A DNA stretch of 64,000 nucleotides. It comes from Glaciecola sp. (lineage in GTDB: Bacteria; Pseudomonadota; Gammaproteobacteria; Pseudomonadales; Pseudohongiellaceae). A program made the position numbers and the translations under genes. The notes under the pieces were generated by a model that had not been told where the DNA came from, made no database searches, and was given only the letters and a program-made list of their open reading frames with translations. Where the stretch lies: positions 1,426 to 65,425 of the forward strand of contig JBLHVT010000005.1 in the NCBI GenBank assembly GCA_047628735.1. The letters are read 5' to 3'. Positions 2 to 37,516 of the stretch are shown one piece after another; position 1 is the stretch's first letter, and each line of letters starts with the position of its first letter.

Positions 2-2554
2 CAGACATGTTCTGCTGATTCTTTACTGCCCACAACTCCTTTAGCTATTCGCAATGGCTGCATTTGGAAACAGCAGTACCAAACGCTTCCAAGCGGTGGT
101 ATTACCGACTCCCCGTTAAGGCGCAATGGCGTTTATTTGATTACCGGCGGCTTGGGTGGTGTTGGAATGATACTGGCAGACTATTTGGCCGAACACTATC
201 AAGCTAAATTGCTATTGTTAGGTCGTTCGGAAATTGATCTATCTGCGGTAGGAGAGTTGACTTCCCCTGTTGTCCCAGAGCCGGCGTTTAAAGCTATTTT
301 GAATCAGGTAAATTGCACTGAGCAGCTGACTGAAATAGTAAAAATGTTATCTATCGCGCCATTGCGCTCGGATTCGAGGCTCGTTACCCAGTTAAATAAG
401 CTCTGTGCCGTTTATATTCTCCATTTTTGGCAGCAATGCGGGTTTATGTTTGTGCAGGGCCAGCAGTTCGATCTCGAGAGCTTGGTAAAGCAACTGAACC
501 TAGATGATGCCTTTGAACCTTGTATTGGCTGGTTTGCCCAAGTGCTTGTTGAAGATGGTTATCTGTCACGGCAAGAAGGAGGGCAATTCAGGGCTTTGCT
601 TTCATCCGATTCCATGCCAGCTCTAGAGCCTTTACATAGAGCCGTTTTGGCAGAGCAGCATGAGTTCCGAGGCACAATAGAATTACTGAAGCATTGTGTC
701 GAAGGCTATTATGTTGGTCTAAAAGGCGAAGTCCCGGCGATCAGTACTCTTTACTCTGAAGGCAGTGATGAATTACTCGCTAATGCTGGAGAAAATACTT
801 TTGCCCATAGCCTTAGAGAGCCGCAAATGCATTTTCTTGCAAAGCAGATTGTGGAATTGGCGAAATGTAGACAAGGAAAACCATTAAGAATACTCGAAGT
901 TGGTGTTGGTGATGGGATATTGGCAGGTATTGTTGCACCCGCTTTAAAAGATTTTTCAGTCGAGTATACGGCTACTGATCTGAGCCCATTGTTTCCGGAA
1001 AAGAATCGACAAAAGGCTAAAGCATTAGGACTCGATTTTTGTCAGTTCAAAACGTTGGACATCAGCAAAGACCCCTTGCTCCAGGGTTTTTGTGCTGATG
1101 AGTATGATTTAATTTTGGCGTTAGATGTCATCCACGCTACCGAGAATATTCAGACTACGCTTACTAATCTGCAGTTACTGCTTGCAGATGGGGGATCAAT
1201 TGCCCTGATAGAGGCGGTATTGGAGAGACGCTGGATTACCATGATTTGGGGGCTGGCAAAAGGCTGGTGGAATTATTCGGACGAGCGTGTTGAAAGCCAT
1301 TCACCCTTACTTTCAATAAGTGATTGGAACGATAAGTTGTTATCTTCGGGGTTCGAATCCGTGGACTGCGTTTCGACTGGTGTAACTCAAATGCATGAGG
1401 GACCACCAGAATCGGACAATCAACAAGAGGGTGATTACGCGTTAATCATTGGCCACAAAGCTGCTGCTATCGATACAAGACAGCGGATCCTTAAGCGAAT
1501 AGAGCGAATGGAAGATAAAGGGTCCGAAGTCATTGCTTTGTCTGCAGATGTTGGCAGCGACGCTGATATCGAGGGTGTGGCTACATTGATCGAGTCAAAA
1601 TTTGGTAAGTTGGATGGCATTATTCATGCAGCGGGTATTACGCAGCGTGAGTTTATATTTAACTTGTTGGGTGAGTCTATCGAGTCTGTTACTGAAGATG
1701 TGTTCTATCCTAAGATCTCGGGGACGTTGGCTCTAGAGTCTCTCGCTAAGCGGTTTAATCCTGCCTTTTGTCTTCTTATATCATCCAATGCTGCCACTCT
1801 CGGTGGCATTGGTATTGGCGCCTATTCAGCTGCCAGTTGTTGGTTAGATGGATATGCGCAGGCGAAAAAAACTTGTGTTAGCGATTACCCATTCGAGACC
1901 GATGATGGGCTAGAAAAAAATAGCGTACGCTGGATTAGCTCAAATTGGGACGGCTGGCCAACGGAAGAAACTACAGGGTTGGAATCGGAATTTAAGACCA
2001 GTATTGATCGCTACAAAATGACAGTAAGCGAATCTGAGAGAGCCTTTGAAACAGTTCTCGCGTCTGGCGTTTCACAGGTTGTCGTGTCGGCGGGCGGGCT
2101 GGATGATCGCCTGCGTCAGCTTGAAGGGCTGTTTACTGTTGATAACCCTAAATCAGCGAATCTGAACCGCGAATCGCAAGCCAGCGATCTGACCCCGAGC
2201 CCAGATCAATCCGCAGCGCAAAAGGCCGCTATTTCATGGCACAGCGATACGGAGTGTTATATTGCGAGTGTCTGGTGTGAGTTACTAGGGGTTAAGCATG
2301 TCACGCCGAATGATGACTTTTTTGACCTTCATGGCGATTCTCTAGTGGGTACGCAATTGATTGCAAGAATTAGTAAAGATAAAAATATAAAGATCCCGTT
2401 CAGAATGTTATTCGAGAAAACGCAGCTTAGACAATTTGCTCTCGGTGTCGAAGACCTTTGTGGCCAACCTCGCGGCGGGGAGACTGAGCCGACAAGCTCA
2501 GCGCATACTGACAATATTATTGATGACTGTGGTGAAGAAGAAGGAACGATTTAA
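2..2554 (+). CDS. Type I polyketide synthase, C-terminal part (5'-truncated by the window edge): KR domain interrupted by a SAM methyltransferase, then ACP
   Basis: The frame is open from nt 2, with no stop before the first in-track Met at 137. GVYLITGGLGGVG...LLLLGRS is the KR NADPH-binding motif. LRILEVGVGDG (893-916) and YDLILALDVIHAT are class I SAM-MT motifs. KLDGIIHAAGI, YPKISG, LLISSNAA, GAYSAAS and SSNWDGW form the rest of the KR catalytic subdomain. FFDLHGDSLVGTQL is the carrier domain, with the Ser codon at 2339-2341. The stop overlaps the next start (TAATG, 2552-2556). Confidence 0.9.
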   Translation, partial: QTCSADSLLPTTPLAIRNGCIWKQQYQTLPSGGITDSPLRRNGVYLITGGLGGVGMILADYLAEHYQAKLLLLGRSEIDLSAVGELTSPVVPEPAFKAILNQVNCTEQLTEIVKMLSIAPLRSDSRLVTQLNKLCAVYILHFWQQCGFMFVQGQQFDLESLVKQLNLDDAFEPCIGWFAQVLVEDGYLSRQEGGQFRALLSSDSMPALEPLHRAVLAEQHEFRGTIELLKHCVEGYYVGLKGEVPAISTLYSEGSDELLANAGENTFAHSLREPQMHFLAKQIVELAKCRQGKPLRILEVGVGDGILAGIVAPALKDFSVEYTATDLSPLFPEKNRQKAKALGLDFCQFKTLDISKDPLLQGFCADEYDLILALDVIHATENIQTTLTNLQLLLADGGSIALIEAVLERRWITMIWGLAKGWWNYSDERVESHSPLLSISDWNDKLLSSGFESVDCVSTGVTQMHEGPPESDNQQEGDYALIIGHKAAAIDTRQRILKRIERMEDKGSEVIALSADVGSDADIEGVATLIESKFGKLDGIIHAAGITQREFIFNLLGESIESVTEDVFYPKISGTLALESLAKRFNPAFCLLISSNAATLGGIGIGAYSAASCWLDGYAQAKKTCVSDYPFETDDGLEKNSVRWISSNWDGWPTEETTGLESEFKTSIDRYKMTVSESERAFETVLASGVSQVVVSAGGLDDRLRQLEGLFTVDNPKSANLNRESQASDLTPSPDQSAAQKAAISWHSDTECYIASVWCELLGVKHVTPNDDFFDLHGDSLVGTQLIARISKDKNIKIPFRMLFEKTQLRQFALGVEDLCGQPRGGETEPTSSAHTDNIIDDCGEEEGTI
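240..1500 (+). other. PKS-type SAM-dependent methyltransferase domain nested inside the KR Rossmann fold (approximate boundaries)
   Basis: It lies between LLLLGRSE (ends about nt 235) and the KR segment KGSEVIALSADV...KLDGIIHAAGI (about 1515-1640). It contains LRILEVGVGDG, YTATDLS, FKTLDISKDP, YDLILALDVIHAT and LLLADGGSIALIE, the motif set of cis-AT PKS MT domains. Confidence 0.75.
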
Positions 2555-2720
2555 TGAGCTTGGATGAACTATTTTCGACACTTGAACAGGTGGGTATTCG
2601 TCTTAGTGCCTCTGATGGGCAGTTGAATTTTCGCGCTCCTAAAGGGGCGATGACAACAGAACTGAAAGCGCAAATCAGAGATAGCAAGGCCGATATTCTG
2701 CGTTTTTTTAGCGAACAAGA
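2554..2720 (+). other. TubC-like (beta-hairpin) N-terminal docking domain at the PKS-to-NRPS junction
   Basis: MSLDELFSTLEQVGIRLSASDGQLNFRAPKGAMTTELKAQIRDSKADILRFF matches the L..L...G..L...G..L.F.AP.G.....L...I...K..IL pattern of TubC-type docking domains. The upstream PKS ends in an acidic unstructured tail (..DNIIDDCGEEEGTI) after the ACP. Confidence 0.6.
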
Positions 2721-5700
2721 ATCAATATTACCTATTGAGGCCGCTGACTATTATGCATTGTGTCACGCTCAGCAACGGATTTGGATGCTTGCTCAGATTG
2801 AGCAAGATGGCACATTATTTAACGTGCCTTTAGCCTATGTGATTGAGGGCAAGTTTGATGTTGCGCGATTTAAGAAAAGCCTTGCTTGCCTGCTTGAGCG
2901 CCATGAAATTCTTCGTACGGTCTTCCCATTAATTGAGGGTGAACCAAAACAGCGGGTGACCAGTTTCAGTACTGAGTTTTTGGATGCGATATTCAGTGAG
3001 CGAGACGTACAAGATCTTTCACCCTCTGAGATTGAAAACCTTTTAACTAAAGAGACAAGGACCATTTTCGATTTGGAAGCAGGACCGATGTTTAAGGTAC
3101 TGATTGCAAAGGAGTCCTCTGAGCGACAGTTACTGCTTGTTACACTCCATCATATTGTTACTGATGGCTGGAGCGTCAGGCTAATGATGCAGGAGTTAAT
3201 TGCTCATTATAAAATTGATCAAGACGGCGACTCAGTTTTACCAAACTTGAGTTTTCAATACCGTGATTTTGCCGCTTGGCAGAACCGGCAAATTCAATCG
3301 GGGGCGATGGCTGCCCATCAAAAATTTTGGATAGAGCAGTTTTCAGAAGGTATTCCAACATTAGAGCTCCATACGGATTTCCCCCGTCCGGCTGTGCAAT
3401 CCTTTAATGGTGCTGAAATTTCTTTTTCTTTTGATGCAGGCTTAGTCGAGGCGATACATCAATTAAGCCGTCGATGTTCTGCTAGCTTCTATATGACCCT
3501 AGTTACCCTGACACAGACATTGCTATTGCGTCATTCTCAACAGGAAAGCATTGTTGTAGGTATGCCTGTGTCTGGGAGAGAAAGGTCGGACTTGGATGAT
3601 CAACTTGGCCTGTATATTAATACGATGGCATTAAAGACTGATCTGCCGATGTCGCTCACTGCTATTGAAGCTATTGAAGTTGTTCGGAATAATTTTATTA
3701 ATGCTTATGAGTATCAAGCTTATCCTTTTGATCTACTTGTGGATGATTTGGATTTGGATCGAGACTTGAGTCGTTCTCCACTTTTTGACGTTATGGTTAT
3801 TCTGCAAGAATCCGGCGCAACGGGTGATAGCGAATCTACTTTGCGGCTTAGCCCTCTACCAATGCCATCCACGACAAGTAAATACGATCTGACCTTTCAC
3901 CTAGAAGAAAGAGCGTCGGAATTACATTTGTCTATAGAATATAATACTGATTTATTCTCAGCTTCACGCATTAAGGGCCTGGGTGAACAGTTTGGTGACT
4001 TGGCTAAACGAATGGTAGCGTCGCCAGACGTGCCGTTGAGTACGTTTTCTGTGTTGTCTGAAATGAAAGAGGGCTTACTCCTTTCTCAATTAACTGGCAA
4101 CGTTAATAATGGCTTGTATTCATCTTCTGATGCCGATTCAAATCTCGAATCAGATAGAAATTTCATTGCTAGTTTTCGAGAACAGGCTGCTAAAAATCCT
4201 CGCAAGACGGCCATTACATTCTCAAATGAAATGCTAACTTATGAGCAACTAGACCAACAGTCAGATAGCCTAGCTGCTTACTTACAGAACTATTTTCAAC
4301 ATAATTCTATTGAGCTATCGCAATGCCTTGTTGGACTTTGTGTAGAAAGATCGACAAGAATGATCGTGTCATTATTAGGTGTTTTGAAATCAGGTGCGGC
4401 CTATCTTCCGATAGATCCTGGATATCCAAGTGATCGAATCGCGTACATGCTCAAAGACAGTGGGGCACAGCTCGTTTTATCGGAGGCCGAGTTAGTTAAA
4501 GTTATCGCACAAGCCTGCGACGCTAATTTTGTTTGCATCGATTCTCAATGGGAAAGTATTTGTAGGACTGATGTTAGCAAGCTTGAAAGAGCTATGGATA
4601 ATGAGAATTTAGCCTATGTGATATATACGTCGGGTTCAACTGGTCTTCCGAAAGGCGTAGAGATTTCTCATCATGCGCTATCCAATTTCCTTAGCAGTAT
4701 GGCGCGGGAACCTGGGCTGCGCCAACAAGATCGGCTCTTAGCCGTAACCACTATTTGTTTTGATATCGCTGCATTGGAATTGTTTTTACCTTTACTGCAG
4801 GGGGCTGAAATAGTATTGGCAGCTGACAGTGATGTTGTTGATGGTCAAAAGCTGATCGATCTTGTAGGCCAACACCAAGTGACCTGCATGCAAGCGACAC
4901 CTGTAACTTGGAAGTTAATGCTTTCGGCGGGCTGGCAAGGGAGTCCGCGGTTGAAGGTACTGTGTGGGGGCGAAGCCTTATCTACTCAGTTGGCAGGTGA
5001 ACTACTTCCGCGCTGTGATCAGCTGTGGAATATGTACGGGCCGACTGAAACCACTATCTGGTCGTTAGTTGCTAGGATCACCTCAGATTCAATTGCCCAG
5101 TCTAACGGTGGTATCGTTCACATAGGCAGCCCCATAGAAAATACAACTCTTTTGGTGCTCGACCGCTGGGGGAAAATATCTGCTCCAGGTGTTCCGGGTG
5201 AGCTTTGTATCGGTGGGGCTGGCTTGGCGAGGGGTTATCTTAATCGACCTGATCTAAGTGCGGATAAGTTTTTTCTTTATAGGCTGCCTCAGAATCAACC
5301 TCTAAAAAGTCAGGTGCAAGAAAACAGCTTACAACTACACAGTTTACAACTACACAGTTTACAACTACACAGTTTGCAACAACACAGATATTACCGTACC
5401 GGTGATTTGGTCTGCGTCACTGAGCAAGGTCAACTCGATTTTTTAGGGCGATTAGATAATCAAGTTAAAGTTCGCGGGTATCGAATAGAGCTTGGAGAGA
5501 TCGAAGCGCAACTGGGGCACAGTGATCTTGTCAGTACCGCTGTTGTTTGTGCGCAACGAGACAGTGATGGCCAGAATTATTTGGTGGCGTATATCCAACC
5601 GACAAGCGATCAGCTACAGATCGATAGTACTAAATTACTCTCTATCAAAGCTGGACTAAGCGATGTACTACCTGGGTACATGGTGCCTGATCAATTTGTA

Positions 5701-8700
5701 GTGCTCGATGAGTTTCCTTTAACGGCGAATGGAAAAATAGATAGGAAAAAACTGTTACAACATGACAGCGAAGTGGGCATAGCTATTGTTACCCAGAGCG
5801 TGCCTTATGTACCTGCAGATACGCCTTTAGAAAAAGTACTAGTTGATATCTGGCAGAGCGTGCTTGAAGTCGAAACTGTTGGTCTTGATGATAATTTCTT
5901 CGAGCTTGGAGGACATAGTTTAAAAGCGACTCGTTTGGTTTTTCGTTTACAAAAGGAAACGGAGTTGGCGCTCCAGTTACTGGACATCTTTAAATACCCC
6001 ACTATTAGCAAGTTGATCGAGAACGTAACAGGACATGAGTCTATAGTTCCAATTGAAGCGCTTACGAAGGCGGCGGCGAGTGATGAAAACGGTGAGTCTC
6101 TATGGCCGTTATCTCGTGCACAAGAACGACTATGGTTGATGCACCAGCTAGATCTGTCTCTTGCCAATGCGAATGCTGGTGCAGCCTATAATGTGTCAAC
6201 GGGCATAACTTTATCAGGCCCGCTGGATATCACGTCTCTGCAGCTAGCTCTAACACAGATAATTAAGCGGCACGAAAGTTTACGGACCGTCTTTCCCGCC
6301 CAGAACGATGGCAGCACAATGCAGCGGGTTGTTGGCTATAGCGATCTAGATGACAGCCTAGCTTTCATTGCATTGCAAGGTGAGCAGGATTTGACTGGTG
6401 TAGTAACGGATTTTACTGGCCAGCCTTTTGATCTGGTGCATGGCCCACTGTTTAAAGTGCTTTTAGTGAAAGCTGATGAAGACCTTGAAGGCGGTAAAAA
6501 AAATCAGGAGCACACGTTGGTGTTGTCGCTTCATCATATTATCTGTGATGAATGGTCCTTACGTATTATTCTTCAAGAGCTATTGATGCTTTATCACAGC
6601 CATAGTGGTCAAAGTGAATTTGCGCTGAAGGATCTCGCTATTCAATATCGTGACTACGCTCATTGGCAAAACCGACGTTTCGCGGATCAGTCTTTGCAAC
6701 AGCTCAGAGGTTATTGGCTGGCTAAAATATCTGCCCCGCCAGGCTCGCTGAATCTTCCTGCTGACTATCCAAGACCCGATGAAATGGATTATCAAGGTGA
6801 CAGCGTAGAATTCAATTGGCCACTGGAATTGAATAGCGCACTTGCCGCTCTCGCGGTGCGAGCTGGTCAAAGTCAGTTTATGATTCTTACGGCCTTGGTC
6901 AAGGTATTACTGTTTCGCTACAGCGGTGAAACAGATATAACTATCGGCTCGCCGGTTCTAGGGCGTACTCATCCAGACTTGGAAAACCAAGTGGGTAATT
7001 ATGTCAATATGCTTGCGCTAAGGGATATTCTTTCACCGCACGAAAGCTTTTTGGTTTTTCTGGATCAGATCAAAGAGACGATCTCCGGCGCATTAGAGCA
7101 TCAAGAATACCCATTTGATCAATTGGTTGAAGACTTATCAGTACCGCGAGAACTAGACCGGCACCCGGTCTTTGATGTGCTGATATCGCTGGAAAGTCAG
7201 TCGGTAGATGACCGCTTGATATCGCTGCCAGTAGGAAAGCGAAGTATCGGTTTGCAGAAGACCACGCCAAGAATATCCCCTTACAGTTGTGCGCTACCCG
7301 TTGCGAAATATGATCTTTCTTTTAACTTTACCGAAACAGAAGAGGGTCTTCGTGCGTCCATAAACTTTCGCACATCACTTTTTAAGCGCCAACGCATCGA
7401 ACGATTGGCAGGTCATCTCGTGCAATTGATGCATAGTATAATTCGGCAACCTGAAACTCCTCTACGTGAACTCTCGCTATTGACCGAAGCAGAAAGTCAG
7501 GCATTGCTGTCGTACAACCAAACTGCTGCCGACTATCCTAAAAACTTTTCACTAGTGGATTTGTGGTCGGCTCAGGTATTGAAGAATCCGAACACTGTCG
7601 CGGTTATCTATCGCGACATACAAATGACCTACCAAGAAATTGATGAGGCTGCGTCTCGCCTCGCCACAATGCTGATCACTCAGGGTGAGATTGGACTTGC
7701 CGAACCGGTTGTAGTCTATTTGGAAAAAAGTCATAAGGTTATCATAAGCTTCCTCGGAGTCTTAAAGGCAGGAGGATGTTATGTCCCGCTCGACCCTAGT
7801 TATCCAGAGAAGCGTGCGGACTACATTCTTCAGAGCAGTCACTGCAGGTTAATTATTGCAGACGATATCCCAGAGTTTATGCATTCTCCTGGGCGCAAGT
7901 TTTTCCTTGCTATAGCACCTAGTGGTCAGTCAATAAATAGTGGATCGTCGGTTAAAGAAGAGTTTGTTGAAAGAGAGTGTGACCCCAACCAAACTGCATA
8001 TGTAATTTATACATCTGGCTCAACAGGGCAGCCGAAAGGGTGTAAGGTAAGTCATTGTAACGTCGTTCGCTTTATTGTTAATGATAAGAATATCTTTAAC
8101 TTCAGTGAAACAGATGTCTGGCTTGTTTCCCACAGTTTTTCGTTTGATTTTTCTGTCTTGGAAATGTATGGCGCGCTTCTCGTCGGTGGTAGGGTTGTCG
8201 TTGCTGACCGGGAGGATGTTGTCGATACGTCAGCGTTTAGAAAACTTCTCTGTAAACATCAAGTGACGATCTTAACTCAGACGCCAGCTGCTTTTACGAA
8301 TCTAGTATTAGTCGAAATGACAGTCGCTGATCACGGTCTTGATGAACATTTGCGGATGGTGATACTTGGCGGAGAACGTCTGTCGTTTGCATCATTGCAA
8401 CCGTGGATCAGTTTTTATCCAAATGATAAAGTTCAAATTATCAACGGATATGGTCCGACCGAAGCAACTGTACTTTCTACCTATCATGCTTTAACTGATG
8501 CAGAAATTATGGCTGACAATGGACTGAGTATAATCGGTGGGCCTCTGCCGGAAACTCAGGTCTATATATTTGACGAATTTCGGCAACAACAGCCTATAGG
8601 AATCTCTGGTGAAATTTGGATCGGCGGCTCGGGTGTTTGTCAGGGTTATATTAACCAGCCTACATTGACCTCATCACGGTTTGTCCCCATGGCGGTGGCA

Positions 8701-14193: not shown

Positions 14194-17100
14194 GCGATAA
14201 ATCCGAAATATCTCAAGAAGAGAAGCCTATCAAAAAGTCTGATATAGAAGACATCTTTGGGCTGTCCCCAATGCAGGAAGGAATGCTTTACGAGATGTTA
14301 ATGCAGGCCAACTCTGGTGCCTATCATGTTCAAATGGACTGTAAGCTAACAGGACAGGTCCACGTCGCTCACTTTTTTGCAGCCTGGCGCTTGCTTTGCC
14401 AGCGCCACACTATTTTGCGCAGTGCGTTTATGCATGAAGGTATTGAAAAGCCGGTACAGGTGGTATTGAAGGCACGGGAACCGGAGTGTCAATTTGTAGA
14501 TTTACGCGAAGAATTGAATGCCAGTGACGCTGATGATGGTAAGGGCGACTGTGATATTTCAATTGAGAAGGGCAGTATAATTGAACAATATCTAACAGTG
14601 GATTTGGCAAAAGGTTTTGATTTGCAAAGAGACGCTCTGATGCGATTGTCTTTGTATCAAGTAACAGAAAATGAATTTCGTTTTGTTTGGTGTTTTCCTC
14701 ACCTCCTTATCGATGCTTGGAGTATGGGGCTTATTATAGAAGACCTGACCGTGATGTATCGGCAACTCTACCGTGAGGGTATTGCGAAGAAGTCATTAGC
14801 TCCAGCGGTTCCGTGGAAAAACTATATCAAGTGGTTAAAAGCTCAGAACCCTCAATTAGCCAAAAATTATTGGCAAAATTACTTGAGTGGCTATGAGGAA
14901 GTTGTTGAACTTCCTTGGCGCAATCCAAAGCCCGCAGACTATGTTATCGGAGAGATGACAATCTCTCTTGGCGCTGAGCTATCGGCATCATTAGCGAGTA
15001 TGGCCTCACAGCAGGGCACAACAGTTAATAATGTCTTTCAGGCAGTTTGGGGCTTAGTTCTCTCTCGGTTGACCGGGGAAAGAGATGTCGCCTTTGGCAC
15101 AGTTGTGTCGGGTAGACAGTCTCGGCTATCTGGAATTGAAGATATTGTAGGTCTGTTTATTAATGCGATTCCGGTTCGTGCAGTGCCGTCTAATGATAAA
15201 ACGATCCTTGAGTTGATAACGGAGGTTCAAAACAATACGGTTGCAAGCTTCGACTATCAATACCTGCCCCTTGCGGATATTCAACAAGTTAGTGGATTGG
15301 GCCGTGAACTCTTCGACCATCTTCTAATTTTTGAGAACTACCCTTTAGGGACTGGCGACGAAGACTCTCATGCCGCTGACGATGATCTGCAGTTTTCTGA
15401 TGTAAAGGCTCATGATATTACGCACTATGATTTCAATCTCATTATTATTCCTGGTGATGTATTAGAGATTAGAGTTACCTGGAATGCTGATGCCTTCGAC
15501 TCAGCTGCAATCCAAAATTATCTTGATAGCTATAGACGCGGCTTAGAGTGGTGTAGTGCTAACAAAGAGAAGACAGTCGACCAGTTTTGCGTATTGTCAC
15601 CAGTTGAAAAAAATCAGCTGCACACTGAGTTTAACAATGCCCCGACAGATGCCCCGACAGACAGCCGATCTAATCAAACCCTGCTTGATGTCATTGCACA
15701 GAACTGTGAACTATTCCCGGATGCAATTGCTATTCGTTATTTGCTAGATGAGACTCAGTTAAGCGCACCACTCACACAAGCACTTTCCACAGTAGAGTTA
15801 AGCTATCTCGAGTTAAGTGATATCTCAGACCGAATAGCGGTTTGGTTAATCCAACGGTATGGTGATTGTAATGGCCAGCGAGTCGCGGTTTGTTTAGAAC
15901 GCTCTGAATTGGTGGTGCCAGTATTGCTCGGTATTATGAAAACTGGGGCGGCATGGATTCCTCTTGAACAGGATTGGCCCGCTGAGCGTTTATCCTCGGT
16001 CATTCAAGAATCTTCGCCTCTGATTCTATTGACCTCATCAAATTTAAAGCAGTCAATAACTGAATTACTAACGTGTCCAGTGGTATCAGTGGATGCTTAT
16101 TTTGTTCAAAGCTTACCATTGCTTCGGCCTGGTTCTGAGGAGTTCACACAACTAGCAATGGCGAAACCATGCTTTGAGGATGCCGCCTACATCATATTCA
16201 CGTCGGGATCTACTGGCGAGCCAAAGGGGTGCGTGTTAAGCCATGGCAATTTGGCGCACTATGCCGGATGGGCCGGTCGGCATTACTATACTGCAGTCTC
16301 TGCAGTCTCTGCAGTCTCTGCAGGGAATGATGCCAGCCTTAACAGTGGAAAAATTACCGGCGGTAATATGTGTTTGTTTACCGCCATTAGTTTTGATCTA
16401 ACGATTACTTCTCTTTTTGTCCCTTTAACCTTAGGAAAAATGCTGACTGTTTTTCCTCAACGTGCAGAGTTAACCGACATACTTAGCTACGCGTTTCAGG
16501 GTATCAATGATATTGATGCAATTAAATTAACGCCAAGTCATATTTCTTTGTTAAGAGACTTAGATCTCCAATCAAGTCATATTACGACTGCAATTGTTGG
16601 CGGAGAAGCATTGTTACCAGAACAGGTTGCCGTGTTGCATGGTCTGAATTCTAGTATGCGTGTTGAAAATGAATACGGTCCGACTGAGACAACCGTAGGT
16701 TGTATAGTTCAAGAAGTGTCGCCAGGCAGTGACAAAATACATATTGGTAAACCCATTAGTAATACTTCAGTTTTTATTTTGGATTCTGCATTGCAGCCGG
16801 TTCCTGTTGGGGTGAAAGGAGAAATCTGTATTGCTGGCAGAGGTGTTGCAAGCGGTTATTTCGAGAGGGGGGCGCTAACTCGCGAGAAATTCATTCAATA
16901 TTCACCCAATATAGACAGGTCTGAAAGACTTAGAATGTATAAAACAGGTGATTTGGGCTGTTGGTTGGCCGATGGCACTATTCATCTGTTTGGCAGGCTT
17001 GATGATCAGGTCAAGATACGTGGTCATCGTATTGAACTGGGCGAAATCGAAGCCTGTATCTCGTCCCACAGCAATGTAGCAAATGCAGTAGTACAGTATC

Positions 17101-18947
17101 GACTTAATAACGAAGGGCATGATGAGTTGGTAGCTTGGTATGTGTCAGAGGCCGCTTTACCGAACAGTAGATTGGAATCGGACATTCGAGCTTTTATCGC
17201 AGACAAGTTGCCAAGTTATATGCTGCCTAGTTCGTTGCTTGAAGTAGGTGAAATTTCTCTGACCAGCAATGGTAAAGTCGATAAGGGTTGTCTTGTATGG
17301 CCGGAAAAGCTGTCCGACTCCACCGTTCATCTAAACGAACCGTTGAACGAGGTGCAGAACAATGTCGCGAAAATTTGGCAGCGGGTACTCGGCCTAAACG
17401 AGCCTCCAGGCTTGCAAGACAATTTCTTTCATATTGGCGGTCACAGCTTAAAAGCGATGCAAGTTGTGGCACGATTACATAAAGAGCTGGGGCTGCGAAT
17501 CAAGTTGAATGAGTTTTTTGATAACTCATTGCTCTGTGAATTGACCGGTCTTCTAGAGACAAAGAAAGTCTCGAGTTTCGAGCATATTCCCGTATCTCCT
17601 GTCAGAAAGCATTATCCTCTATCGGATGCCCAGAAGAGTTTATGGCTACTACAGTGGCATGGTACTGGAAAGGCGGGTGCCGCCTACAATATGCCAAAAG
17701 CATTTCTCTACCATACGCCAGTGGACATCGTCAGGCTCAAACGTGCCTTTGCCTTGCTTATTGGCAGGCACGAGAGTTTACGGACAGGTTTCGAAGAAAT
17801 TGCTGGTGTTCCGGTGCAAGTAATCCATAGCAATGTGAAATTGCCGATAGAGATAGTCGACTTGTCGTTTGCTGAGAATTCAATGGAGCGGGCGAGGGAA
17901 GTTGTATCGGAAGATGCTTATGTGCCATTCGATTTGACCAAGCCTCCTTTGATACGATTGGCATTAATTAGGCTTCAGGATAACAAGAGCGTTATATTGC
18001 TTACAGTCAATCACATCATTGGTGATGGCTGGTCGATGAATGTTATTTATCAAGAGATCATGGCACTTTATGAAGCGTGTTGCCAAGACCGTCCATCCCC
18101 ACTTGCCCCACTGAGGGTGCAGTACAAAGATTACACACAGTGGCAGCTTAATCAGGATTTGACTAGTGCAAAGAACTACTGGCAACAAGTGTTAGATGGG
18201 ATTCCCGAAAAAATTGCACTGCCTTACGATTTTCCTGATGCGGACAAGAGCAAATTTGAAGGGGATATCACTAACCTTGTCATTGAGCGATCGACGCGAA
18301 ATGCGCTTTATACTTTCTCACAGCGCTGTAACACGACTATGTCGACGTTAGTTCTGTCAGTGTTTAACCTATTTCTTTTTCAACTGACCAAGCAAGAGGA
18401 TATCGTGATAGGGATGAGCGTGGCTAACCGCAACCATCCTGACCTTGAAAACCTGATCGGTTTTTTTGTGAATATTCTACCTATTCGCATTGTTATGGAT
18501 AACGACATTGAGTTTGAAGATCTTGTCGACCAAGTGGCGAAAAAAACTCAAGGTGCTATGCAGCATCAGGAGTTTCCCTTTGATCGGATGGTCGAAATGG
18601 TAAACCCCGACAGAAATAGCGAACATCAGCCAGTTCTAAATGTCGTTTATGGTTTTCAGAACTTTTCTGATGTCAGTCTTGAGTTGGACAAAGCGCAAGG
18701 CAGTGTAGCCAAAGAAGGCCGCGTAATTTCTACACCGGAAACGTCAGATGAAGACTTTGAGTCTTTCGATTTACCCTTTAAAACAGCAAAATTTGATCTT
18801 ACTCTTTTTGTTTTGGATGATGGTGAACGGCTACACTTAGACCTCGAATACAATTCCAGTCTTTTTCTTGAAAAATCAGCATTGCGGCAGCTAAGAATGC
18901 TGGGAGCTATTATGCAACAAATTGCTAAGAGTAGTGGGTATGAATAA
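14190..18947 (+). CDS. Non-ribosomal peptide synthetase: C-A-T-C, with a condensation domain at the C-terminus
   Basis: The ATGA overlap with the upstream ORF indicates coupling. The N-terminus LSPMQEGMLYE is typical of C domains that follow an E domain. Core motifs, in order:
- C4 PHLLIDAWS 14697-14723
- A4 FTSGSTGEPKG 16197-16229
- T4 GGHSL, Ser 17445-17447
- C5 NHIIGDGWS 18009-18035. Confidence 0.97.
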   Translation: MSDKSEISQEEKPIKKSDIEDIFGLSPMQEGMLYEMLMQANSGAYHVQMDCKLTGQVHVAHFFAAWRLLCQRHTILRSAFMHEGIEKPVQVVLKAREPECQFVDLREELNASDADDGKGDCDISIEKGSIIEQYLTVDLAKGFDLQRDALMRLSLYQVTENEFRFVWCFPHLLIDAWSMGLIIEDLTVMYRQLYREGIAKKSLAPAVPWKNYIKWLKAQNPQLAKNYWQNYLSGYEEVVELPWRNPKPADYVIGEMTISLGAELSASLASMASQQGTTVNNVFQAVWGLVLSRLTGERDVAFGTVVSGRQSRLSGIEDIVGLFINAIPVRAVPSNDKTILELITEVQNNTVASFDYQYLPLADIQQVSGLGRELFDHLLIFENYPLGTGDEDSHAADDDLQFSDVKAHDITHYDFNLIIIPGDVLEIRVTWNADAFDSAAIQNYLDSYRRGLEWCSANKEKTVDQFCVLSPVEKNQLHTEFNNAPTDAPTDSRSNQTLLDVIAQNCELFPDAIAIRYLLDETQLSAPLTQALSTVELSYLELSDISDRIAVWLIQRYGDCNGQRVAVCLERSELVVPVLLGIMKTGAAWIPLEQDWPAERLSSVIQESSPLILLTSSNLKQSITELLTCPVVSVDAYFVQSLPLLRPGSEEFTQLAMAKPCFEDAAYIIFTSGSTGEPKGCVLSHGNLAHYAGWAGRHYYTAVSAVSAVSAGNDASLNSGKITGGNMCLFTAISFDLTITSLFVPLTLGKMLTVFPQRAELTDILSYAFQGINDIDAIKLTPSHISLLRDLDLQSSHITTAIVGGEALLPEQVAVLHGLNSSMRVENEYGPTETTVGCIVQEVSPGSDKIHIGKPISNTSVFILDSALQPVPVGVKGEICIAGRGVASGYFERGALTREKFIQYSPNIDRSERLRMYKTGDLGCWLADGTIHLFGRLDDQVKIRGHRIELGEIEACISSHSNVANAVVQYRLNNEGHDELVAWYVSEAALPNSRLESDIRAFIADKLPSYMLPSSLLEVGEISLTSNGKVDKGCLVWPEKLSDSTVHLNEPLNEVQNNVAKIWQRVLGLNEPPGLQDNFFHIGGHSLKAMQVVARLHKELGLRIKLNEFFDNSLLCELTGLLETKKVSSFEHIPVSPVRKHYPLSDAQKSLWLLQWHGTGKAGAAYNMPKAFLYHTPVDIVRLKRAFALLIGRHESLRTGFEEIAGVPVQVIHSNVKLPIEIVDLSFAENSMERAREVVSEDAYVPFDLTKPPLIRLALIRLQDNKSVILLTVNHIIGDGWSMNVIYQEIMALYEACCQDRPSPLAPLRVQYKDYTQWQLNQDLTSAKNYWQQVLDGIPEKIALPYDFPDADKSKFEGDITNLVIERSTRNALYTFSQRCNTTMSTLVLSVFNLFLFQLTKQEDIVIGMSVANRNHPDLENLIGFFVNILPIRIVMDNDIEFEDLVDQVAKKTQGAMQHQEFPFDRMVEMVNPDRNSEHQPVLNVVYGFQNFSDVSLELDKAQGSVAKEGRVISTPETSDEDFESFDLPFKTAKFDLTLFVLDDGERLHLDLEYNSSLFLEKSALRQLRMLGAIMQQIAKSSGYE
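15639..15662 (+). repeat. 12-bp in-frame tandem duplication encoding (APTD)2 in the C-A linker
   Basis: gccccgacagat at 15639-15650 is followed directly by gccccgacagac at 15651-15662. Confidence 0.85.
16292..16323 (+). repeat. 9-bp in-frame tandem repeat, about 3.5 copies, encoding (AVS)n inside A domain 4
   Basis: The unit tgcagtctc occurs at 16292, 16301 and 16310, followed by a partial tgcag. The translation is TAVSAVSAVSAG. It sits between A3 (FTSGSTGEPKG) and A4 (FDLTITS). Confidence 0.95.
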
Positions 18948-18980
18948 GTTTGCAGCGGGATTTCAAAAGGAGTTGAAAAA

Positions 18981-21900
18981 TTGAAGCTAGGTGATTTTAG
19001 CGTATTGGATGAATTGCAGGATCAGGATAGTTTTCAAGATGTCGTGAATCGTTTTAATGAAACCGCGACTGACTATCCCAGCGCCAGTACAGTGAACGAG
19101 ATATTCCAACATCGGGTTGATGAAAGTCCTGACGCTATTGCGGTGAAAGATCCTGATAGATTTTACACGTATGCTGAATTGGATCGGCGTTCCAATAAAC
19201 TATCTCACTACCTTCTGTCAAGAACCATAGCGCCAGAATCTTTTGTGGCAATAATGATGGACGGAAGTTGTGATGCAACTGTGGCTATATTAGGTGTACT
19301 AAAAGCTGGGGCCGCCTACTTTTCAATGAGCGCAGATTTACCCATCGAGCGTGCTAAGTATATGCTGGACGATTGCGCCGCGCCTGTCCTTATTTCTTCG
19401 AGGGGACATATTAAGAAAATGAATAGGCTGCAATGGGAGTGTGCTGCGTTAGAAGAAATCTTATGCATTGATAGTGACTGTATTCATGCAGAGTCTGAAG
19501 AAGATACAGAAATGATGAACCCAGAAATTTGGCGCTTCATCGCTGATCAAGCGTTTGATGATATCTCTGGGGGCGGATGGAAAAGTATCTATACGGGGGA
19601 GTGGATAAGCCGTGAGGTTATGGACGCCTATGGTGATAGCATTGAAACGAAACTTACCCCGTTTTTTACCAAGGATACTCGAGTATTAGAGATCGGCTGC
19701 GCTAGTGGTATCAGCATGTTCAGATTGGCACCCAAATGTGGATTCTATATGGGAACTGATCTGTCGCCTGGTATTATTGACTGGTGTGCTCAGAAAGCGG
19801 AGCAAACTAAGCAAAACAATATTCACTTGGAATGCTTAGCTGCACATGAGATTGACCAATTGGAACAGGGTGATTTCGATGTGGTTATCATTAATAGCGT
19901 CGTGGAGCTTTTTAGTGGCCACAACTATCTTCGAGACGTTGTTAATAAAATAGTCGGTAAAATGGGGCCGAAGGGGGTTCTCTTTTTAGGAACTCTTTGG
20001 GACCAAGACAGCAAAGGCAAGTTTGCTCAATCTCTCGTTGATTTTAAAAGGCAGCATGGTAGTTCTGCGCACACCAAAATAGATCTAGACGACGACTTAT
20101 TTATTTCTCGAGATTACGTGGAGGATTTAACGTTAGACATTGATGAGTTAGTCAGCGTAGAATTTTCTCGAATGGCTGGTGATTCACTCCATGAGTTGTC
20201 CGCATACAGTTTTGATGCTCTGCTTTGTGTCGATAAAGTTAACCGAGCCAACACCGCGGACCGAAAGCGCCATAAAAAACAAACCGACTGGACCGAAATC
20301 AAGCGCTTTTCGCCTGAGCGACTTGCACCAATCGGTGATGGAAACTCGCTTGCCTATTTGATATACACCTCTGGTACTACTGGTAAGCCCAAAGGCGTTT
20401 TAGTTGAGCATCATTCGGTTAGTCGCTTGGTAATTAACACGAACTATTTTTCATTAGATTCTAGTGACCGCGTACTTAAAACGAGCTCCATGTCGTTTGA
20501 TGCGTCTACCTTAGAGATTTGGGGGCCGTTGTTAAACGGTGCAAGTGTTTGCTATGGCGCAGAGAAGGACATACTCGACCTTAAGCGTCTGTATAGCTTG
20601 GTGAAGGATGAAGAAATCACCTGTATGTTTTTCACGACTAGCTTGTTAAATGTAGTTGCCCGTTTAGCACCTGAAATATTTGGGCATTTAAGAACTCTTA
20701 TAACGGGTGGTGAAAAAGCGTCGGTTGAAACCTTGACCCAGTTAAAATCCCTATTTCCTGACTTACGAGTAATTAATGGCTATGGACCCACGGAAAACAC
20801 TACGTTCACTACTTTTTTTGAGGTGACCGACAGTCAAGCGATGACGGTTCCAATTGGTAAACCAATCTCGAATTCTACCGCTTATGTCTTAGATGATTTA
20901 GAGAGGCCTCTTCCCATTGGGGTGGTGGGAGAGTTATATGCCGGTGGAGATGGGGTTGCTCGAGGCTATTTAAATGCGCCTGATAGTACCGCTGCTAGCT
21001 TTGTGTATTGCGAGTTTTTGAAAGACCAGCGTTTGTATCGCACAGGAGATAGAGCGCGATGGCTTGAAGATGGCAATCTTGAATTTTTAGGCCGAATTGA
21101 TGATCAGGTAAAAGTGAGGGGGTTTCGTATTGAGCCTGCTGACATAGAGAAAAATATTAGTGAACACCCTGATGTTCAAGAAGTGGTTGTGATAACGCGG
21201 CAAGTAGAGGAGGGTCTCGAGTTGCTTGCCTATGTTACCGGTCAGGACAATTTGTCGATTGTGGATGTTAAGCATTTCGTTTCTCATAAGTTACCTAATT
21301 ACATGGTGCCAAGCCATATCATAAAGCTGGCGCAGTTTCCGCTAAATCGAAATGGTAAAGTAGACATCAAACAATTGCCGGCGCCAGAAAATTTTCGAGC
21401 AGGCCATTCATCCGACGTAAAGTTAGTGTTAGAGGCCGAAAAGCAGATGGCTGGTATCTGGCAAGAGATTCTTAGCGACTCTGCTGAGCAGCAAAAGCCG
21501 ATCCAAGGTGAGGTATTGGCGCAAACACAGTTTGGCGCAAATGATAACTTCTTCGACTTAGGGGGGCATAGCTTACGAGCGACTAAATTGTTGGCAATGA
21601 TATATAACGGGATGGGAGTATCGTTACCATTGTCTGCAGTTTTTGAAGCAAAGACCTTGCGGGAATTAACAGGGAAAGTATTAGATTCACTTGAGTTTGG
21701 TGAGGAGTATGCTGATAGCCCCATGGTGCAACTCAATCAAGCTGATGGCCCTAACTTGTTTGCCTTCCCTCCTGGCACGGGAGACGTATTAGGTTACATA
21801 CCATTGGCTGAAAAACTTGAAAACTGTCGGCTATTTGCTTTTAACTTTATCGAAAACGAGAATCGCGATACGCTGTATGCTGACTTAATTGAGGAAAAGC

Positions 21901-22418
21901 AGCCACAAGGTGAAATTACTTTGTTTGGATATTCAGCGGGCGGTAATTTAGCTTGTCATGTGGCAAATGCGCTAGAGCTACGCGGGAGGTTGGTTAAAGA
22001 TATAATTATGGTGGATTCTTCTCGAAAGATGGCTGCCTACCAATTTGATCCAAATGAAACAAAGCGAATCACTGAAGATTTTTTGAATCACGAGACCATC
22101 AAGCCTTATGTGTCGAGTCCATTGCTAAAGGACAAAGTAGTACGCAAGATTTCAAGCTATTATAATTACATCGAAGAAACCGTAGACCTACTTCTTTTGA
22201 ATGCGAATCTGCATGTGATACTCGCGGAAGCAGGACAGGATAAATTTCATGATAATGAAGGTAAGCTGATTATGCATCTTTCCGCCTGGGCACAAGCGAC
22301 TAATGGTTGCTATCGAACTTATCAAGGGACTGGTTTGCATAATGATATGTTGTATCAGAAGCCGTTGGAGGCTAATGCAGAAATTATCAGCCGTATTGTG
22401 AGGGAGTCATCGCTATGA
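18981..22418 (+). CDS. Non-ribosomal peptide synthetase: A (interrupted by a methyltransferase domain)-T-TE, with no C domain
   Basis: The start is TTG with AAGGAG 9 nt upstream (18966-18971). Core motifs, in order:
- A2-like LKAGAAYFSMSADLP
- NRPS-type M domain: GGWKSIYTGEWISREVMDAY, then VLEIGCASG with LEIGCASG at 19686-19709
- A3 YTSGTTGKPKG 20364-20396
- A5 NGYGPTENT
- A7 YRTGD
- T GGHSL, Ser 21570-21572
- TE GYSAGG, Ser 21933-21935, with downstream Asp (MVDSS) and His (GLHNDM). Confidence 0.95.
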   Translation: MKLGDFSVLDELQDQDSFQDVVNRFNETATDYPSASTVNEIFQHRVDESPDAIAVKDPDRFYTYAELDRRSNKLSHYLLSRTIAPESFVAIMMDGSCDATVAILGVLKAGAAYFSMSADLPIERAKYMLDDCAAPVLISSRGHIKKMNRLQWECAALEEILCIDSDCIHAESEEDTEMMNPEIWRFIADQAFDDISGGGWKSIYTGEWISREVMDAYGDSIETKLTPFFTKDTRVLEIGCASGISMFRLAPKCGFYMGTDLSPGIIDWCAQKAEQTKQNNIHLECLAAHEIDQLEQGDFDVVIINSVVELFSGHNYLRDVVNKIVGKMGPKGVLFLGTLWDQDSKGKFAQSLVDFKRQHGSSAHTKIDLDDDLFISRDYVEDLTLDIDELVSVEFSRMAGDSLHELSAYSFDALLCVDKVNRANTADRKRHKKQTDWTEIKRFSPERLAPIGDGNSLAYLIYTSGTTGKPKGVLVEHHSVSRLVINTNYFSLDSSDRVLKTSSMSFDASTLEIWGPLLNGASVCYGAEKDILDLKRLYSLVKDEEITCMFFTTSLLNVVARLAPEIFGHLRTLITGGEKASVETLTQLKSLFPDLRVINGYGPTENTTFTTFFEVTDSQAMTVPIGKPISNSTAYVLDDLERPLPIGVVGELYAGGDGVARGYLNAPDSTAASFVYCEFLKDQRLYRTGDRARWLEDGNLEFLGRIDDQVKVRGFRIEPADIEKNISEHPDVQEVVVITRQVEEGLELLAYVTGQDNLSIVDVKHFVSHKLPNYMVPSHIIKLAQFPLNRNGKVDIKQLPAPENFRAGHSSDVKLVLEAEKQMAGIWQEILSDSAEQQKPIQGEVLAQTQFGANDNFFDLGGHSLRATKLLAMIYNGMGVSLPLSAVFEAKTLRELTGKVLDSLEFGEEYADSPMVQLNQADGPNLFAFPPGTGDVLGYIPLAEKLENCRLFAFNFIENENRDTLYADLIEEKQPQGEITLFGYSAGGNLACHVANALELRGRLVKDIIMVDSSRKMAAYQFDPNETKRITEDFLNHETIKPYVSSPLLKDKVVRKISSYYNYIEETVDLLLLNANLHVILAEAGQDKFHDNEGKLIMHLSAWAQATNGCYRTYQGTGLHNDMLYQKPLEANAEIISRIVRESSL
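19430..20345 (+). other. NRPS-type methyltransferase domain inserted between A-domain core motifs A2 and A3 (approximate boundaries)
   Basis: The whole MT motif set lies downstream of LKAGAAYFSMSADLPIERAKYML (A2) and upstream of LAYLIYTSGTTGKPKG (A3). Confidence 0.8.
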
Positions 22419-23668
22419 ACATATTCGATTCAACTGAATCAAATGTAAGGTCATATTGTCGATCTTTCCCTAAGGTTTTTGAGTCTGCCTCTGGAGCCGA
22501 ACTTATCGATGAAGAAGGGAATTTTTATATCGACTTTTTTGCTGGTGCAGGCTCACTAAACTATGGCCATAATAATCCGATAATGACCGAAGCCCTGATT
22601 AGCTACTTACAATCTGGGGGCGTCGTTCATGGGTTGGATATGGCGACCACTGCCAAACGTGATTTTCTAGAAACATTTAAGTCGGTAATTTTAGATCCAC
22701 GAGGATTAGATTATAAGGTTCAGTTTACCGGGCCCACAGGCACCAATGCCGTAGAGGCGGCTTTAAAGCTAGCACGAAAAATAAAGCAGCGATCTAATGT
22801 GATTTCCTTTACAAATGCCTTTCACGGCTTAACGTCAGGTGCTTTGGCTGTCACTGGAAGCCAGAATTATCGTAATGAAGCTTACGTTGATCGCCGCAAT
22901 GTAACCTTTATGCCCTATGATGGCTACATGGGCGATGGTGTGAACACATTGGATTACGTTCGTAAGTTGCTCATCGATAAAAGTAGTGGTATCGATCTTC
23001 CTGCAGCAGTGATTGTGGAATTAATTCAGGCTGAAGGCGGCGTTAACGTTGCGTGCCCGCAGTGGGTTAGAGAGCTACGACTTCTTTGCAATGAATTTGA
23101 TATGTTGCTGATTGTTGATGATATTCAAGTTGGCTGTGGTCGTAGTGGATGCTTTTTTAGCCATGAAGAGGCAGGCATAAAACCTGATATGATCGCCCTG
23201 TCAAAATCCATCAGTGGTTTTGGGCTGCCGATGTCTTTATTGTTATTGAAGCCAGAATTTGATCAATGGGAAAGCGGAGAACATACAGGAACTTTTCGCG
23301 GAAATAACCTCGCCTTCGTTACAGCCAAAATAGCATTGGATTATTGGCGGACATCTCAGTTCGCTGACGAGATCCATGAAAAATCACTTTTAGTCCAAGA
23401 GGCCTTGCAAGATCTTCAAAGTAGATTCCCAAAGACTATTAGGGCTATCAAAGGTCGGGGGATGATACGCGGTCTAGAATTTTGGCAACCGCATGTGGCG
23501 CAATCGCTGGTAAAAACCGCTTTTTTGAATGGATTAATCATTGAGCTGTGCGGGGCCGAACAAAATGTTTTAAAATTATTGCCACCATTAATTATCGAGA
23601 ATCAGCTATTGATTAAGGGCATTGGCGTTATCGATAGCGCCTTGAAAGCGATCAATTCGGAGGTTTAA
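22415..23668 (+). CDS. Diaminobutyrate-2-oxoglutarate transaminase (EctB/Dat/PvdH family, PLP-dependent)
   Basis: It is collinear along its whole length with EctB as I remember it. Shared motifs are ESNVRSYCRSFP, YIDFFAGAGSLNYGHNNP, GLDYKVQFTGPTGTNAVEAALKLAR, VIVE.IQAEGG, DDIQVGCGRSG, ALSKSISG (PLP Lys) and GTFRGNNLAF. An ATGA overlap links it to the TE-containing NRPS. Confidence 0.93.
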   Translation: MNIFDSTESNVRSYCRSFPKVFESASGAELIDEEGNFYIDFFAGAGSLNYGHNNPIMTEALISYLQSGGVVHGLDMATTAKRDFLETFKSVILDPRGLDYKVQFTGPTGTNAVEAALKLARKIKQRSNVISFTNAFHGLTSGALAVTGSQNYRNEAYVDRRNVTFMPYDGYMGDGVNTLDYVRKLLIDKSSGIDLPAAVIVELIQAEGGVNVACPQWVRELRLLCNEFDMLLIVDDIQVGCGRSGCFFSHEEAGIKPDMIALSKSISGFGLPMSLLLLKPEFDQWESGEHTGTFRGNNLAFVTAKIALDYWRTSQFADEIHEKSLLVQEALQDLQSRFPKTIRAIKGRGMIRGLEFWQPHVAQSLVKTAFLNGLIIELCGAEQNVLKLLPPLIIENQLLIKGIGVIDSALKAINSEV

Positions 23669-23742
23669 CTTATTGTGCTAGCCATTTAATAGCATTCTTG
23701 AGCGGAGGGGTTAGTCTGAGAGTTGGGTATGGCGACAACCGT

Positions 23743-37507: not shown

Positions 37508-37516
37508 GACATATCC

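Follow-up and report, generated by a model that had tools for sequence, protein, structure and literature searches.

Among the condensation (C) domains of nonribosomal peptide synthetases (NRPSs), the LCL subtype carries the motif (P)LSxAQxxLW and the DCL subtype the motif LSPMQEGMLY. EctB is the transaminase that provides 2,4-diaminobutyrate (Dab) in ectoine synthesis, and it is also found as the Dab supplier in NRPS clusters. Methyltransferases embedded in adenylation (A) domains can be typed by their motifs: those of type V share mb-i xxGGWx(S/N)x(Y/F), mb-ii (V/I)LE(I/L)GxxxG and mb-iv DxVVxNSVxExFxGxxY(L/F), and the mb-iv Asn is replaced by Ala in the S-methylating type IV (Lundy et al., PMC8341866). 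Three modes of diamino-acid binding by A domains have been described, all of which depend on acidic residues of the specificity code: Glu at code position 3; Glu/Asp at positions 4 and 9, as in the polymyxin Dab code DVGEISSIDK; and Asp at positions 8 and 9 (PMC12042044). The 64,000-nucleotide (nt) stretch analysed here (hereafter the window; Glaciecola sp. assembly GCA_047628735.1, contig JBLHVT010000005.1, positions 1,426 to 65,425) contains, at positions 2-23668, roughly the final third, intact, of a large assembly line that combines NRPS and polyketide synthase (PKS) modules. The pathway is apparently uncharacterised. We consider it quite likely that the whole forms an NRPS-PKS-NRPS line, with an internal module of ketosynthase (KS), acyltransferase (AT), ketoreductase (KR) interrupted by a C-methyltransferase (C-MT) and acyl carrier protein (ACP), followed by five NRPS modules, a thioesterase (TE) and an EctB-type transaminase. 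The probable product is an N-methylated peptide with the polyketide in mid-chain, not a simple lipopeptide. An initial annotation made from the letters of the same DNA had called the five-ORF operon intact, which holds for the end of the assembly line; the window contains only the last part of the cluster, which probably measures about 50-60 kb or more.

The operon consists of five open reading frames (ORFs), given here with lengths in amino acids (aa) and, for the NRPS part, with thiolation (T) and epimerization (E) domains:
2-2554, plus strand: ORF1, 850 aa, the 3' part of a PKS gene, truncated by the window start (Pfam)
2554-14193, plus strand: ORF2, 3879 aa, TubC_N dock-C-A1-T-C-A2-T-C-A3-T-E (Pfam, motifs, codes)
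14190-18947, plus strand: ORF3, 1585 aa, C(DCL-type)-A4-T-C(LCL-type), the last C belonging to module 5 (Pfam, motifs)
18981-22418, plus strand: ORF4, 1145 aa, TTG start, A5 with an inserted N-methyltransferase, T and TE (Pfam, motifs)
22415-23668, plus strand: ORF5, 417 aa, EctB-type diaminobutyrate--2-oxoglutarate transaminase, a class-III aminotransferase (TIGR02407)

The proposal that these five same-strand frames form one operon was borne out, as every junction listed for them was found in place. ORF1 and ORF2 are joined by TAATG at 2552-2556, ORF2 and ORF3 by ATGA at 14190-14193, and ORF4 and ORF5 overlap in ATGA at 22415-22418, while the 33-nt gap between ORF3 and ORF4 holds AAGGAG at 18967-18972, 8 nt 5' of the TTG at 18981. 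None of the five ORFs contains an internal stop codon, and the domain string read earlier by eye, both interrupted domains included, was reproduced by Pfam and motif searches. An identical EctB with the same neighbours was found on six independent Joint Genome Institute (JGI) metagenome contigs (L003-L008), and L009, a relative at 88% identity located on a 360-kb contig, shares the gene layout of the window. The gene order is therefore not an assembly artefact, which speaks against the mis-assembly named in the initial annotation as a possible refutation. The ratios of nonsynonymous to synonymous substitution rates (dN/dS) between the window and L009 are 0.13 for ORF3, 0.09 for ORF4 and 0.10 for ORF5, and these three genes are therefore under purifying selection. 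An exact-sequence look-up of ORF2 returned no record, and a promoter/terminator scan 3' of ORF5 scored no better than shuffled sequence. Among the populations that share the identical EctB (window, L003, L004, L006), small in-frame indels give ORF3 lengths of 1579, 1582 and 1585 aa.

Pfam recognised in ORF2 four Condensation-family domains, the fourth of which is an E domain by its motifs, together with three A and three T domains. The docking, A, E and TE domains of ORF2 to ORF4 are:
2563-2715, plus strand: TubC-type beta-hairpin docking domain (PF18563, E=1.6e-14, 54 bits against a cut-off of 26)
3988-5796, plus strand: A1, code DILQLGMIWK, Gly
7414-9147, plus strand: A2, code DFLTIGGVLK, nearest to Thr-type A domains
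10729-12489, plus strand: A3, code DAFFMGVTFK, Ile/Val-like
12736-14190, plus strand: E domain with the motifs PIQAWF, HHLVVDGVSW, EGHGRE, TIGWF and FNYLG
in ORF3: A4, code DLTKIGEVGK, Asn
in ORF4: A5, code DALFIGGTFK, Ile/Val-like
21753-22394, plus strand: type I TE with GYSAG (PF00975, E=1.3e-15)

To obtain the specificity codes anew, the A domains were aligned to GrsA-PheA and anchored by motif, a procedure in which the GrsA sequence returned its own code DAWTIAAICK; positions 278 and 331 of A1, A4 and A5 were placed by motif, not by plain pairwise alignment. All five codes that had been read by hand proved identical after the alignment. Every A domain carries the motifs TSG(S/T)TGxPKG, YGPTE, Y(R/K)TGD, GRxDxQVKxRG and NGK, and all the codes run from D to K. 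The A1 code DILQLGMIWK is listed among Gly-activating A domains (PMC12283262). In comparison with Thr-type domains, A2 has lost W239, N278, M322 and H331, and its pocket is more hydrophobic. When DFLTIGGVLK was sought in the full-text literature together with two codes met in relatives, DIWEMTAICK and DVGELxSIDK, only the polymyxin code was matched. The T domains show LGGHSL, IGGQSL, LGGDSI, IGGHSL and LGGHSL, and the C domains HHIVTDG, HHIICDE, HHLISDG, PHLLIDA and NHIIGDG, the second (catalytic) His being kept in all, also in the variant active sites HHIICDE (6530-6550), PHLLIDA (14700-14720) and NHIIGDG (18010-18030). LSPMQEGMLY at the N-terminus and PHLLIDAWS at the active site mark the C domain that follows the E domain, the last C domain of ORF3 has YPLSDAQKSLW and NHIIGDGWS, and the remaining ones show the LCL-type motif (P)LSxAQxxLW. 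Because the E domain is followed by a DCL-type C domain, a D-configuration of the third residue of the window, as initially predicted for A3, is supported. The GYSAG motif and the PF00975 match likewise agree with the earlier assignment of product release to a type I TE. Module 5 is split between two proteins, its C domain ending ORF3 and its A(M)-T-TE part forming ORF4. A3 (10729-12489) and part of A5 (20313-21416) differ in code from their L009 counterparts, and close lineages probably make different congeners.

The A domain of module 5 is interrupted by one further feature:
19548-20300, plus strand: embedded type V backbone N-methyltransferase (GGWKSIY, VLEIGCASG, DVVIINSVVELFSGHNYL)

This domain lies between the a2 and a3 motifs, at residues ~190-440 of ORF4, with a3 (TSGTTGKPKG) at residue 463, and it splits the Pfam A profile at position ~134-190. 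Among solved structures it is closest to the N-methyltransferase embedded in TioS (5WMM, E=1.9e-15). The motifs mb-i (GGWKSIY), mb-ii (VLEIGCASG) and mb-iv (DVVIINSVVELFSGHNYL, with the Asn) are all present and FYMGTDLS is close to mb-iii, with no clear match to mb-vi in A5. By these motifs, A5 is a family-4 interrupted A domain (A2MbA3, type V). Type V motifs between a2 and a3 point to N-methylation of the last residue, which is predicted to be N-Me-Val or N-Me-Ile; the earlier suggestion of a possibly methylated final residue thus stands and can be made specific as backbone N-methylation. An O- or S-methyltransferase was also considered and was ruled out by the mb-iv Asn and the type V motifs. 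In a set of 120 ORF4 homologues, the code is nearly always that of Val (DAFWLGGTFK, 57) or Ile (DAFFLGVTFK, 25), and the Val or Ile codes of this family likewise rule out A5 as a Dab module.

The most unusual feature of the cluster is the KR of ORF1, which is split by the C-MT. The domains along this frame are:
128-235, plus strand: N-terminal piece of the KR catalytic subdomain (residues 43-78; YLITGGLGGVG...LLLLGRSE; KR profile 1-36)
302-1366, plus strand: PKS-type C-MT within the KR (residues 101-455; S-adenosylmethionine (SAM) motif ILEVGVGDG at residue 297)
1457-1951, plus strand: rest of the KR catalytic subdomain (residues ~486-650; YSAAS at 608; KR profile 39-163, adh_short)
2258-2440, plus strand: ACP carrier (HGDSL motif; PP-binding E=2.4e-12)

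Residues 43-78 (YLITGGLGGVGMILADYLAEHYQAKLLLLGRSE) comprise the NADPH-binding Gly-rich loop and beta2, and they align with the start of the EryKR1 catalytic subdomain; the two pieces of the KR profile, 1-36 and 39-163, are set ~405 aa apart. The C-MT thus sits inside the KR Rossmann fold, after beta2, and the two KR pieces would, judging from the sequence, pack together into one fold. In residue numbers of ORF1, the Gly-rich loop comes at 47, followed by the SAM motif (297) and the KR Tyr (608). The same spacing, with the Gly-rich motif ~250 aa before and the KR Tyr ~310 aa after the SAM motif, was seen in the window, L011, L014 and the proteins P0121-P0123, and it differs from the usual order of a C-MT followed by an uninterrupted KR, as found in P0124, P0129, P0130 and P0150. 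The C-MT matches that of CurJ (5THY) with E=1.3e-42 (phmmer), its N-terminal helical lid included, and a Foldseek search with an AlphaFold2 model (mean predicted local distance difference test score 80.7) gave 5THY at a template-modelling score, TM(target), of 0.85. The window thus contains features of cis-AT PKSs, namely a CurJ-like C-MT and a KR of the short-chain dehydrogenase/reductase (SDR) type with TGGxGxxG and the catalytic Ser and Tyr. A limited literature search found no relevant description of a KR interrupted by a methyltransferase, which does not show that the arrangement is undescribed. If active, such a C-MT-interrupted Rossmann fold would be of interest for the structure and engineering of PKSs. 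The C-terminus of ORF1 is an acidic tail, DDCGEEEGTI. In L019, a distant colinear relative, the split KR(C-MT) is followed by dehydratase (DH), enoylreductase (ER) and ACP domains (18021-25766), giving the unusual order KS-AT-KR(MT)-DH-ER-ACP.

The part upstream of base 1 was read from relatives, not from this genome. A metagenome scan with the first 400 aa of ORF1 found no relative, a scan with its KR-ACP part found L011-L015, and a homologue search with the ORF1 fragment gave matches of <=35% identity only, with no close full-length relative. L011 is syntenic: 842 aa of ORF1 are matched at 72% identity, and the initial 1718 aa of ORF2 at 74%. Its ORF1 homologue has 1964 aa and forms a complete KS-AT-KR(C-MT)-ACP, a single extension module, in which the Cys and both His of the KS are intact and the AT shows GHSIGE and HGFH. 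The gene before this PKS encodes an NRPS ending in A(N-MT)-T-C-A-T, the last A domain of which has the Thr code DFWNIGMVHK. The more distant L012, L014 and L019 show the same trio of N-methylating and Thr modules, KS-AT-KR(MT)-ACP, and dock-C-A(Gly), and P0190, with 83% identity to the NRPS that precedes the PKS in L011, has a Ser module (DVWHFSLVDK) and a Val-like module (DAFLLGGTFK) before the N-methylating one. From these relatives we infer that the 5' part of ORF1 outside the window encodes KS-AT-psiKR. Because L011 and its relatives carry NRPS modules ending in Thr before the PKS module, this module would be internal to the peptide and not a lipid starter. The initial reading of a polyketide-acyl-Gly lipopeptide is not supported, since L011 has a single extension module after NRPS modules and no lipid-loading step is visible.

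Based on the above modules, the following route can be proposed. Upstream modules for ...Ser, a Val-like residue, N-Me-X and Thr would deliver a Thr thioester to the PKS module, in which KS-AT(malonyl-type)-KR(C-MT)-ACP would add one malonate unit, C-methylate it and reduce it, both the activity and the order of these reactions being predicted. This step would yield a 4-amino-3,5-dihydroxy-2-methylhexanoyl group, a statine-like unit. The chain would then pass from ORF1 to ORF2 via the acidic tail and the TubC-type dock, and ORF2 to ORF4 would add Gly, X (DFLTIGGVLK), D-Ile/Val, Asn and N-Me-Val/Ile, with the type V methyltransferase N-methylating the last residue on its carrier and the type I TE releasing the chain by hydrolysis or cyclisation. 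EctB would probably supply Dab for a module upstream of the window. A literature search for the predicted dihydroxy-methylhexanoic unit found nothing relevant. Statine-like units are typical of protease inhibitors, and it may be speculated that this one hints at activity of that type. In L014, a 35% relative, glycosyltransferase-like (EryCIII-like C-terminus) and cupin-8/JmjC-like genes lie between the Gly module and the next NRPS (14728-17224), a hint that this lineage makes glycosylated or hydroxylated congeners.

At its 3' end the operon carries a recurrent cassette, C / A(M)-T-TE / EctB. ORF4-like A(M)-T-TE proteins form a large family spread over many phyla, and the preceding gene always ends in a C domain. 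The neighbourhoods of eight distant relatives from other phyla were compared; six of them have an EctB-type transaminase directly downstream, in one case as a fusion. Presence of the transaminase and the penultimate code, for the 88% relative L009 and for seven of the distant loci, are as follows:
L009, 88% relative: transaminase present, DLTKIGEVGK, as in the window
L010, Opitutus terrae: transaminase present, DVGELLSIDK
L016, Parabeggiatoa: transaminase present, DVGELISIDK
L020, metagenome, protein P0093: transaminase present, fused to the TE, DVGELLSVDK
L021, Synoicihabitans: transaminase present, DVGEDLSICK
L022, Omnitrophota metagenome-assembled genome (MAG): transaminase present, DLTKIGEVGK (Asn)
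L017, Acanthopleuribacter: transaminase absent, DLSKIGEVGK (Asn-like)
L018, ENA metagenome contig: transaminase absent, DLTKIGEVGK (Asn)

The transaminases of L009, L010 and L016 pass the EctB equivalog cut-off, and for those of L020-L022 the annotation goes no further than Aminotran_3. In all the compared loci the antepenultimate code is Val- or Ile-like, and Dab goes into the penultimate position often, not always. Found across phyla, the termination cassette C / A(N-MT)-T-TE / EctB could serve as a handle for genome mining. In Acanthopleuribacter pedis (L017), the A(M)-T-TE gene is flanked by two radical-SAM proteins (7765-9990, 15422-17743), with a faint Condensation signal, and a CmlA-like beta-hydroxylase takes the place of the transaminase; a literature search for Acanthopleuribacter products found nothing relevant.

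The transaminase itself scores 624.1 bits against the EctB equivalog TIGR02407 (trusted cut-off 552.2), so the earlier assignment of ORF5 as a Dab-forming aminotransferase can be kept, and ORF5 is predicted to make L-2,4-diaminobutyrate, as an enzyme of the EctB type. Neither ectA nor ectC lies near it in the window, its neighbours being the NRPS gene and a porin gene on the opposite strand. None of the five A domains of the window shows any of the three acidic diamino-acid signatures, and, with the required residues absent from all five codes, none appears suited to Dab. The Dab probably goes into a module upstream of the window, most plausibly the N-Me-X module, the code of which in homologous synthetases reads DIWEMTA(I/V)C or DIWEMTADD, the latter with the two Asp of the SulM-type mode.

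Three other explanations of the locus have to be weighed. A lipid-like polyketide chain could be made upstream and extended by five amino acids to a lipopentapeptide, and it fits this idea that the window starts inside a PKS gene and that the distant, colinear L019 has a further PKS gene upstream of its NRPS genes, so that the line may begin with a polyketide or lipid at a great distance upstream. However, the gene directly before the KR(C-MT) PKS in L011, L014, L012 and L019 is an NRPS ending in A(Thr)-T, the PKS of L011 is a single extension module, and P0190 has at least three more amino-acid modules upstream; the modules upstream in relatives are ordinary elongation modules. A lipopentapeptide thus appears very unlikely. 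A different doubt concerns EctB, which might serve general metabolism (ectoine or polyamine) and be a chance neighbour, or be a relic of a recombined Dab-type cassette. The lack of a diamino-acid signature in all five A domains would agree with this, as would a module swap, since four transaminase-bearing relatives have a DVGE-type (Dab/Orn-like) penultimate code and the window has Asn there. Against it stand the 4-nt ATGA overlap that couples ORF5 to ORF4, the lack of ectA and ectC nearby, the adjacency in six of the eight relatives including the gene fusion, and a dN/dS of 0.10, the same as in the NRPS genes, all of which make a housekeeping or relic EctB unlikely; the Omnitrophota cluster also pairs an Asn code with EctB, so the combination is not a one-off.

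If EctB does belong to the pathway, Dab could still be used within the window, with A2 or the Asn-coded A4 activating it by an undescribed binding mode. The A2 code matches nothing that was found, EctB is the sole dedicated precursor-supply gene in the operon, and at the penultimate position some relatives carry a Dab-type code and others an Asn-type one. All three described modes, however, need acidic code residues (PMC12042044); A2 lacks them all and looks like a Thr-type domain whose pocket is more hydrophobic, and the Lys at code position 4 of A4 would be expected to repel a positively charged side chain, so that activation of Dab by either domain seems distinctly improbable. The NRPS-PKS-NRPS line with Dab consumed upstream is preferred over these readings, and some points weigh against it. 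Its upstream part is drawn from relatives at 69-83% identity. The codes of the window differ from those of L009, with DAFFMGVTFK against DALVMGGTLK in A3 and DALFIGGTFK against DALFLGVTFK in A5, so the modules upstream may likewise use other substrates here than in the relatives. The packing of the KR pieces is predicted from the sequence, the Foldseek search of the AlphaFold2 model having given no residue ranges. Finally, P0190, the closest available relative, has the N-Me-X code DIWEMTAIC, without the two Asp.

That no characterised match was recognised at the start still holds: the names of the homologues are all generic, and the literature gave no characterised match for the codes or the predicted unit. 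On the broader scale, we tentatively put forward, as a possibility somewhat short of even, an undescribed cross-phylum family of NRPS-PKS peptides that combines two conserved sub-assemblies with an undescribed KR/C-MT didomain architecture. The first sub-assembly would comprise N-Me-X, Thr, KS-AT-KR(C-MT)-ACP and Gly, and the second an aliphatic residue, Dab/Asn, N-Me-Val/Ile with TE, and EctB. The proposed members belong to Gammaproteobacteria, Verrucomicrobiota (Opitutus, Synoicihabitans), Omnitrophota, large sulfur bacteria and Acidobacteriota. With this locus, an uncultured marine bacterial family for which we know of no natural products gains a peptide-polyketide pathway that is apparently uncharacterised, and a concrete prediction can be made of an N-methylated product with a D-residue and a statine-like unit.

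As to the host context, the GC content is ~0.42-0.49 and even across the whole window. The only match among species-representative genomes was a 92%-identical fragment in a Candidatus Azotimanducaceae MAG (Gammaproteobacteria, Pseudomonadales), and the host is taken to be an uncultured marine gammaproteobacterium belonging to that family or close to it. An outer-membrane beta-barrel (porin) gene lies directly 3' of ORF5 on the opposite strand and is followed by housekeeping genes for an AmpD-like amidase, TadA, PurL, the psp operon, Ffh, RimM and TrmD, and also for DsbC, homoserine dehydrogenase, threonine synthase and RecJ. The cluster therefore ends at ~23.7 kb, in a Gram-negative chromosome. 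Scans of the window for tRNA and Rfam families found nothing. Several other features of the region were recorded:
~23729-23935, plus strand: ORF of 68 aa after ectB, also called in L003-L009, overlapping the 3' end of the porin gene, with no family match
36490-39499: phage-shock operon, with pspC-like and pspA genes on the minus strand and a sigma-54 activator (pspF-like) on the plus strand
39608-40855, minus strand: serine beta-lactamase/penicillin-binding-protein-like gene (PF00144), ~16 kb from the cluster
44750-45541, plus strand: Sfp-type 4'-phosphopantetheinyl transferase (ACPS and AASDHPPT_N), 21 kb downstream, a candidate activator of the carrier domains

Compared with known systems, the polymyxin Dab A domain (DVGEISSIDK; PMC12042044) resembles the penultimate codes of Opitutus, Parabeggiatoa and L020, whereas the window has at this position the Asn code DLTKIGEVGK, without the acidic residues of the diamino-acid modes, which are absent from all A domains of the window. 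With module 5 of TtbB from the thalassospiramide system, a member of family 4, A5 shares the a2-a3 insertion and the motifs mb-i, mb-ii and mb-iv (PMC8341866). The M domains of family 4 measure ~250-270 aa, as does that of A5; the substrate of TtbB module 5 is Tyr, whereas the A5 code is Val/Ile-like, and the A5 module, unlike that of TtbB, is separated from its C domain, which belongs to the preceding protein. The C-MT is like the CurJ type (5THY) of cis-AT modules in fold and sequence, but it is placed inside the KR, after the Gly-rich loop and beta2, and not 5' of the KR as in the usual arrangement. In the manner of TubC-type docks, ORF2 begins with TubC_N and ORF1 ends in an acidic tail, so that an interaction is predicted, the difference being that the partner in the window is a PKS carrier protein. 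ORF5 resembles the EctB of ectoine synthesis in scoring above the equivalog cut-off; it differs from the ectoine operon in that it lacks ectA and ectC and is translationally coupled to the NRPS termination gene, to which it is fused in P0093. The parts of the line are thus all of known kinds, namely modular NRPS, a cis-AT PKS module, a family-4 interrupted A domain, an EctB-type supplier and a TubC-type dock, and the current understanding of NRPS and PKS biochemistry is unaltered. The thalassospiramide line is, like the window, a marine proteobacterial NRPS-PKS with a statine-like unit (predicted in the window) and a terminal A(M)-T-TE, although its remaining modules differ from those of the window, and by this likeness thalassospiramide biosynthesis may be regarded as the nearest characterised analogy in logic.

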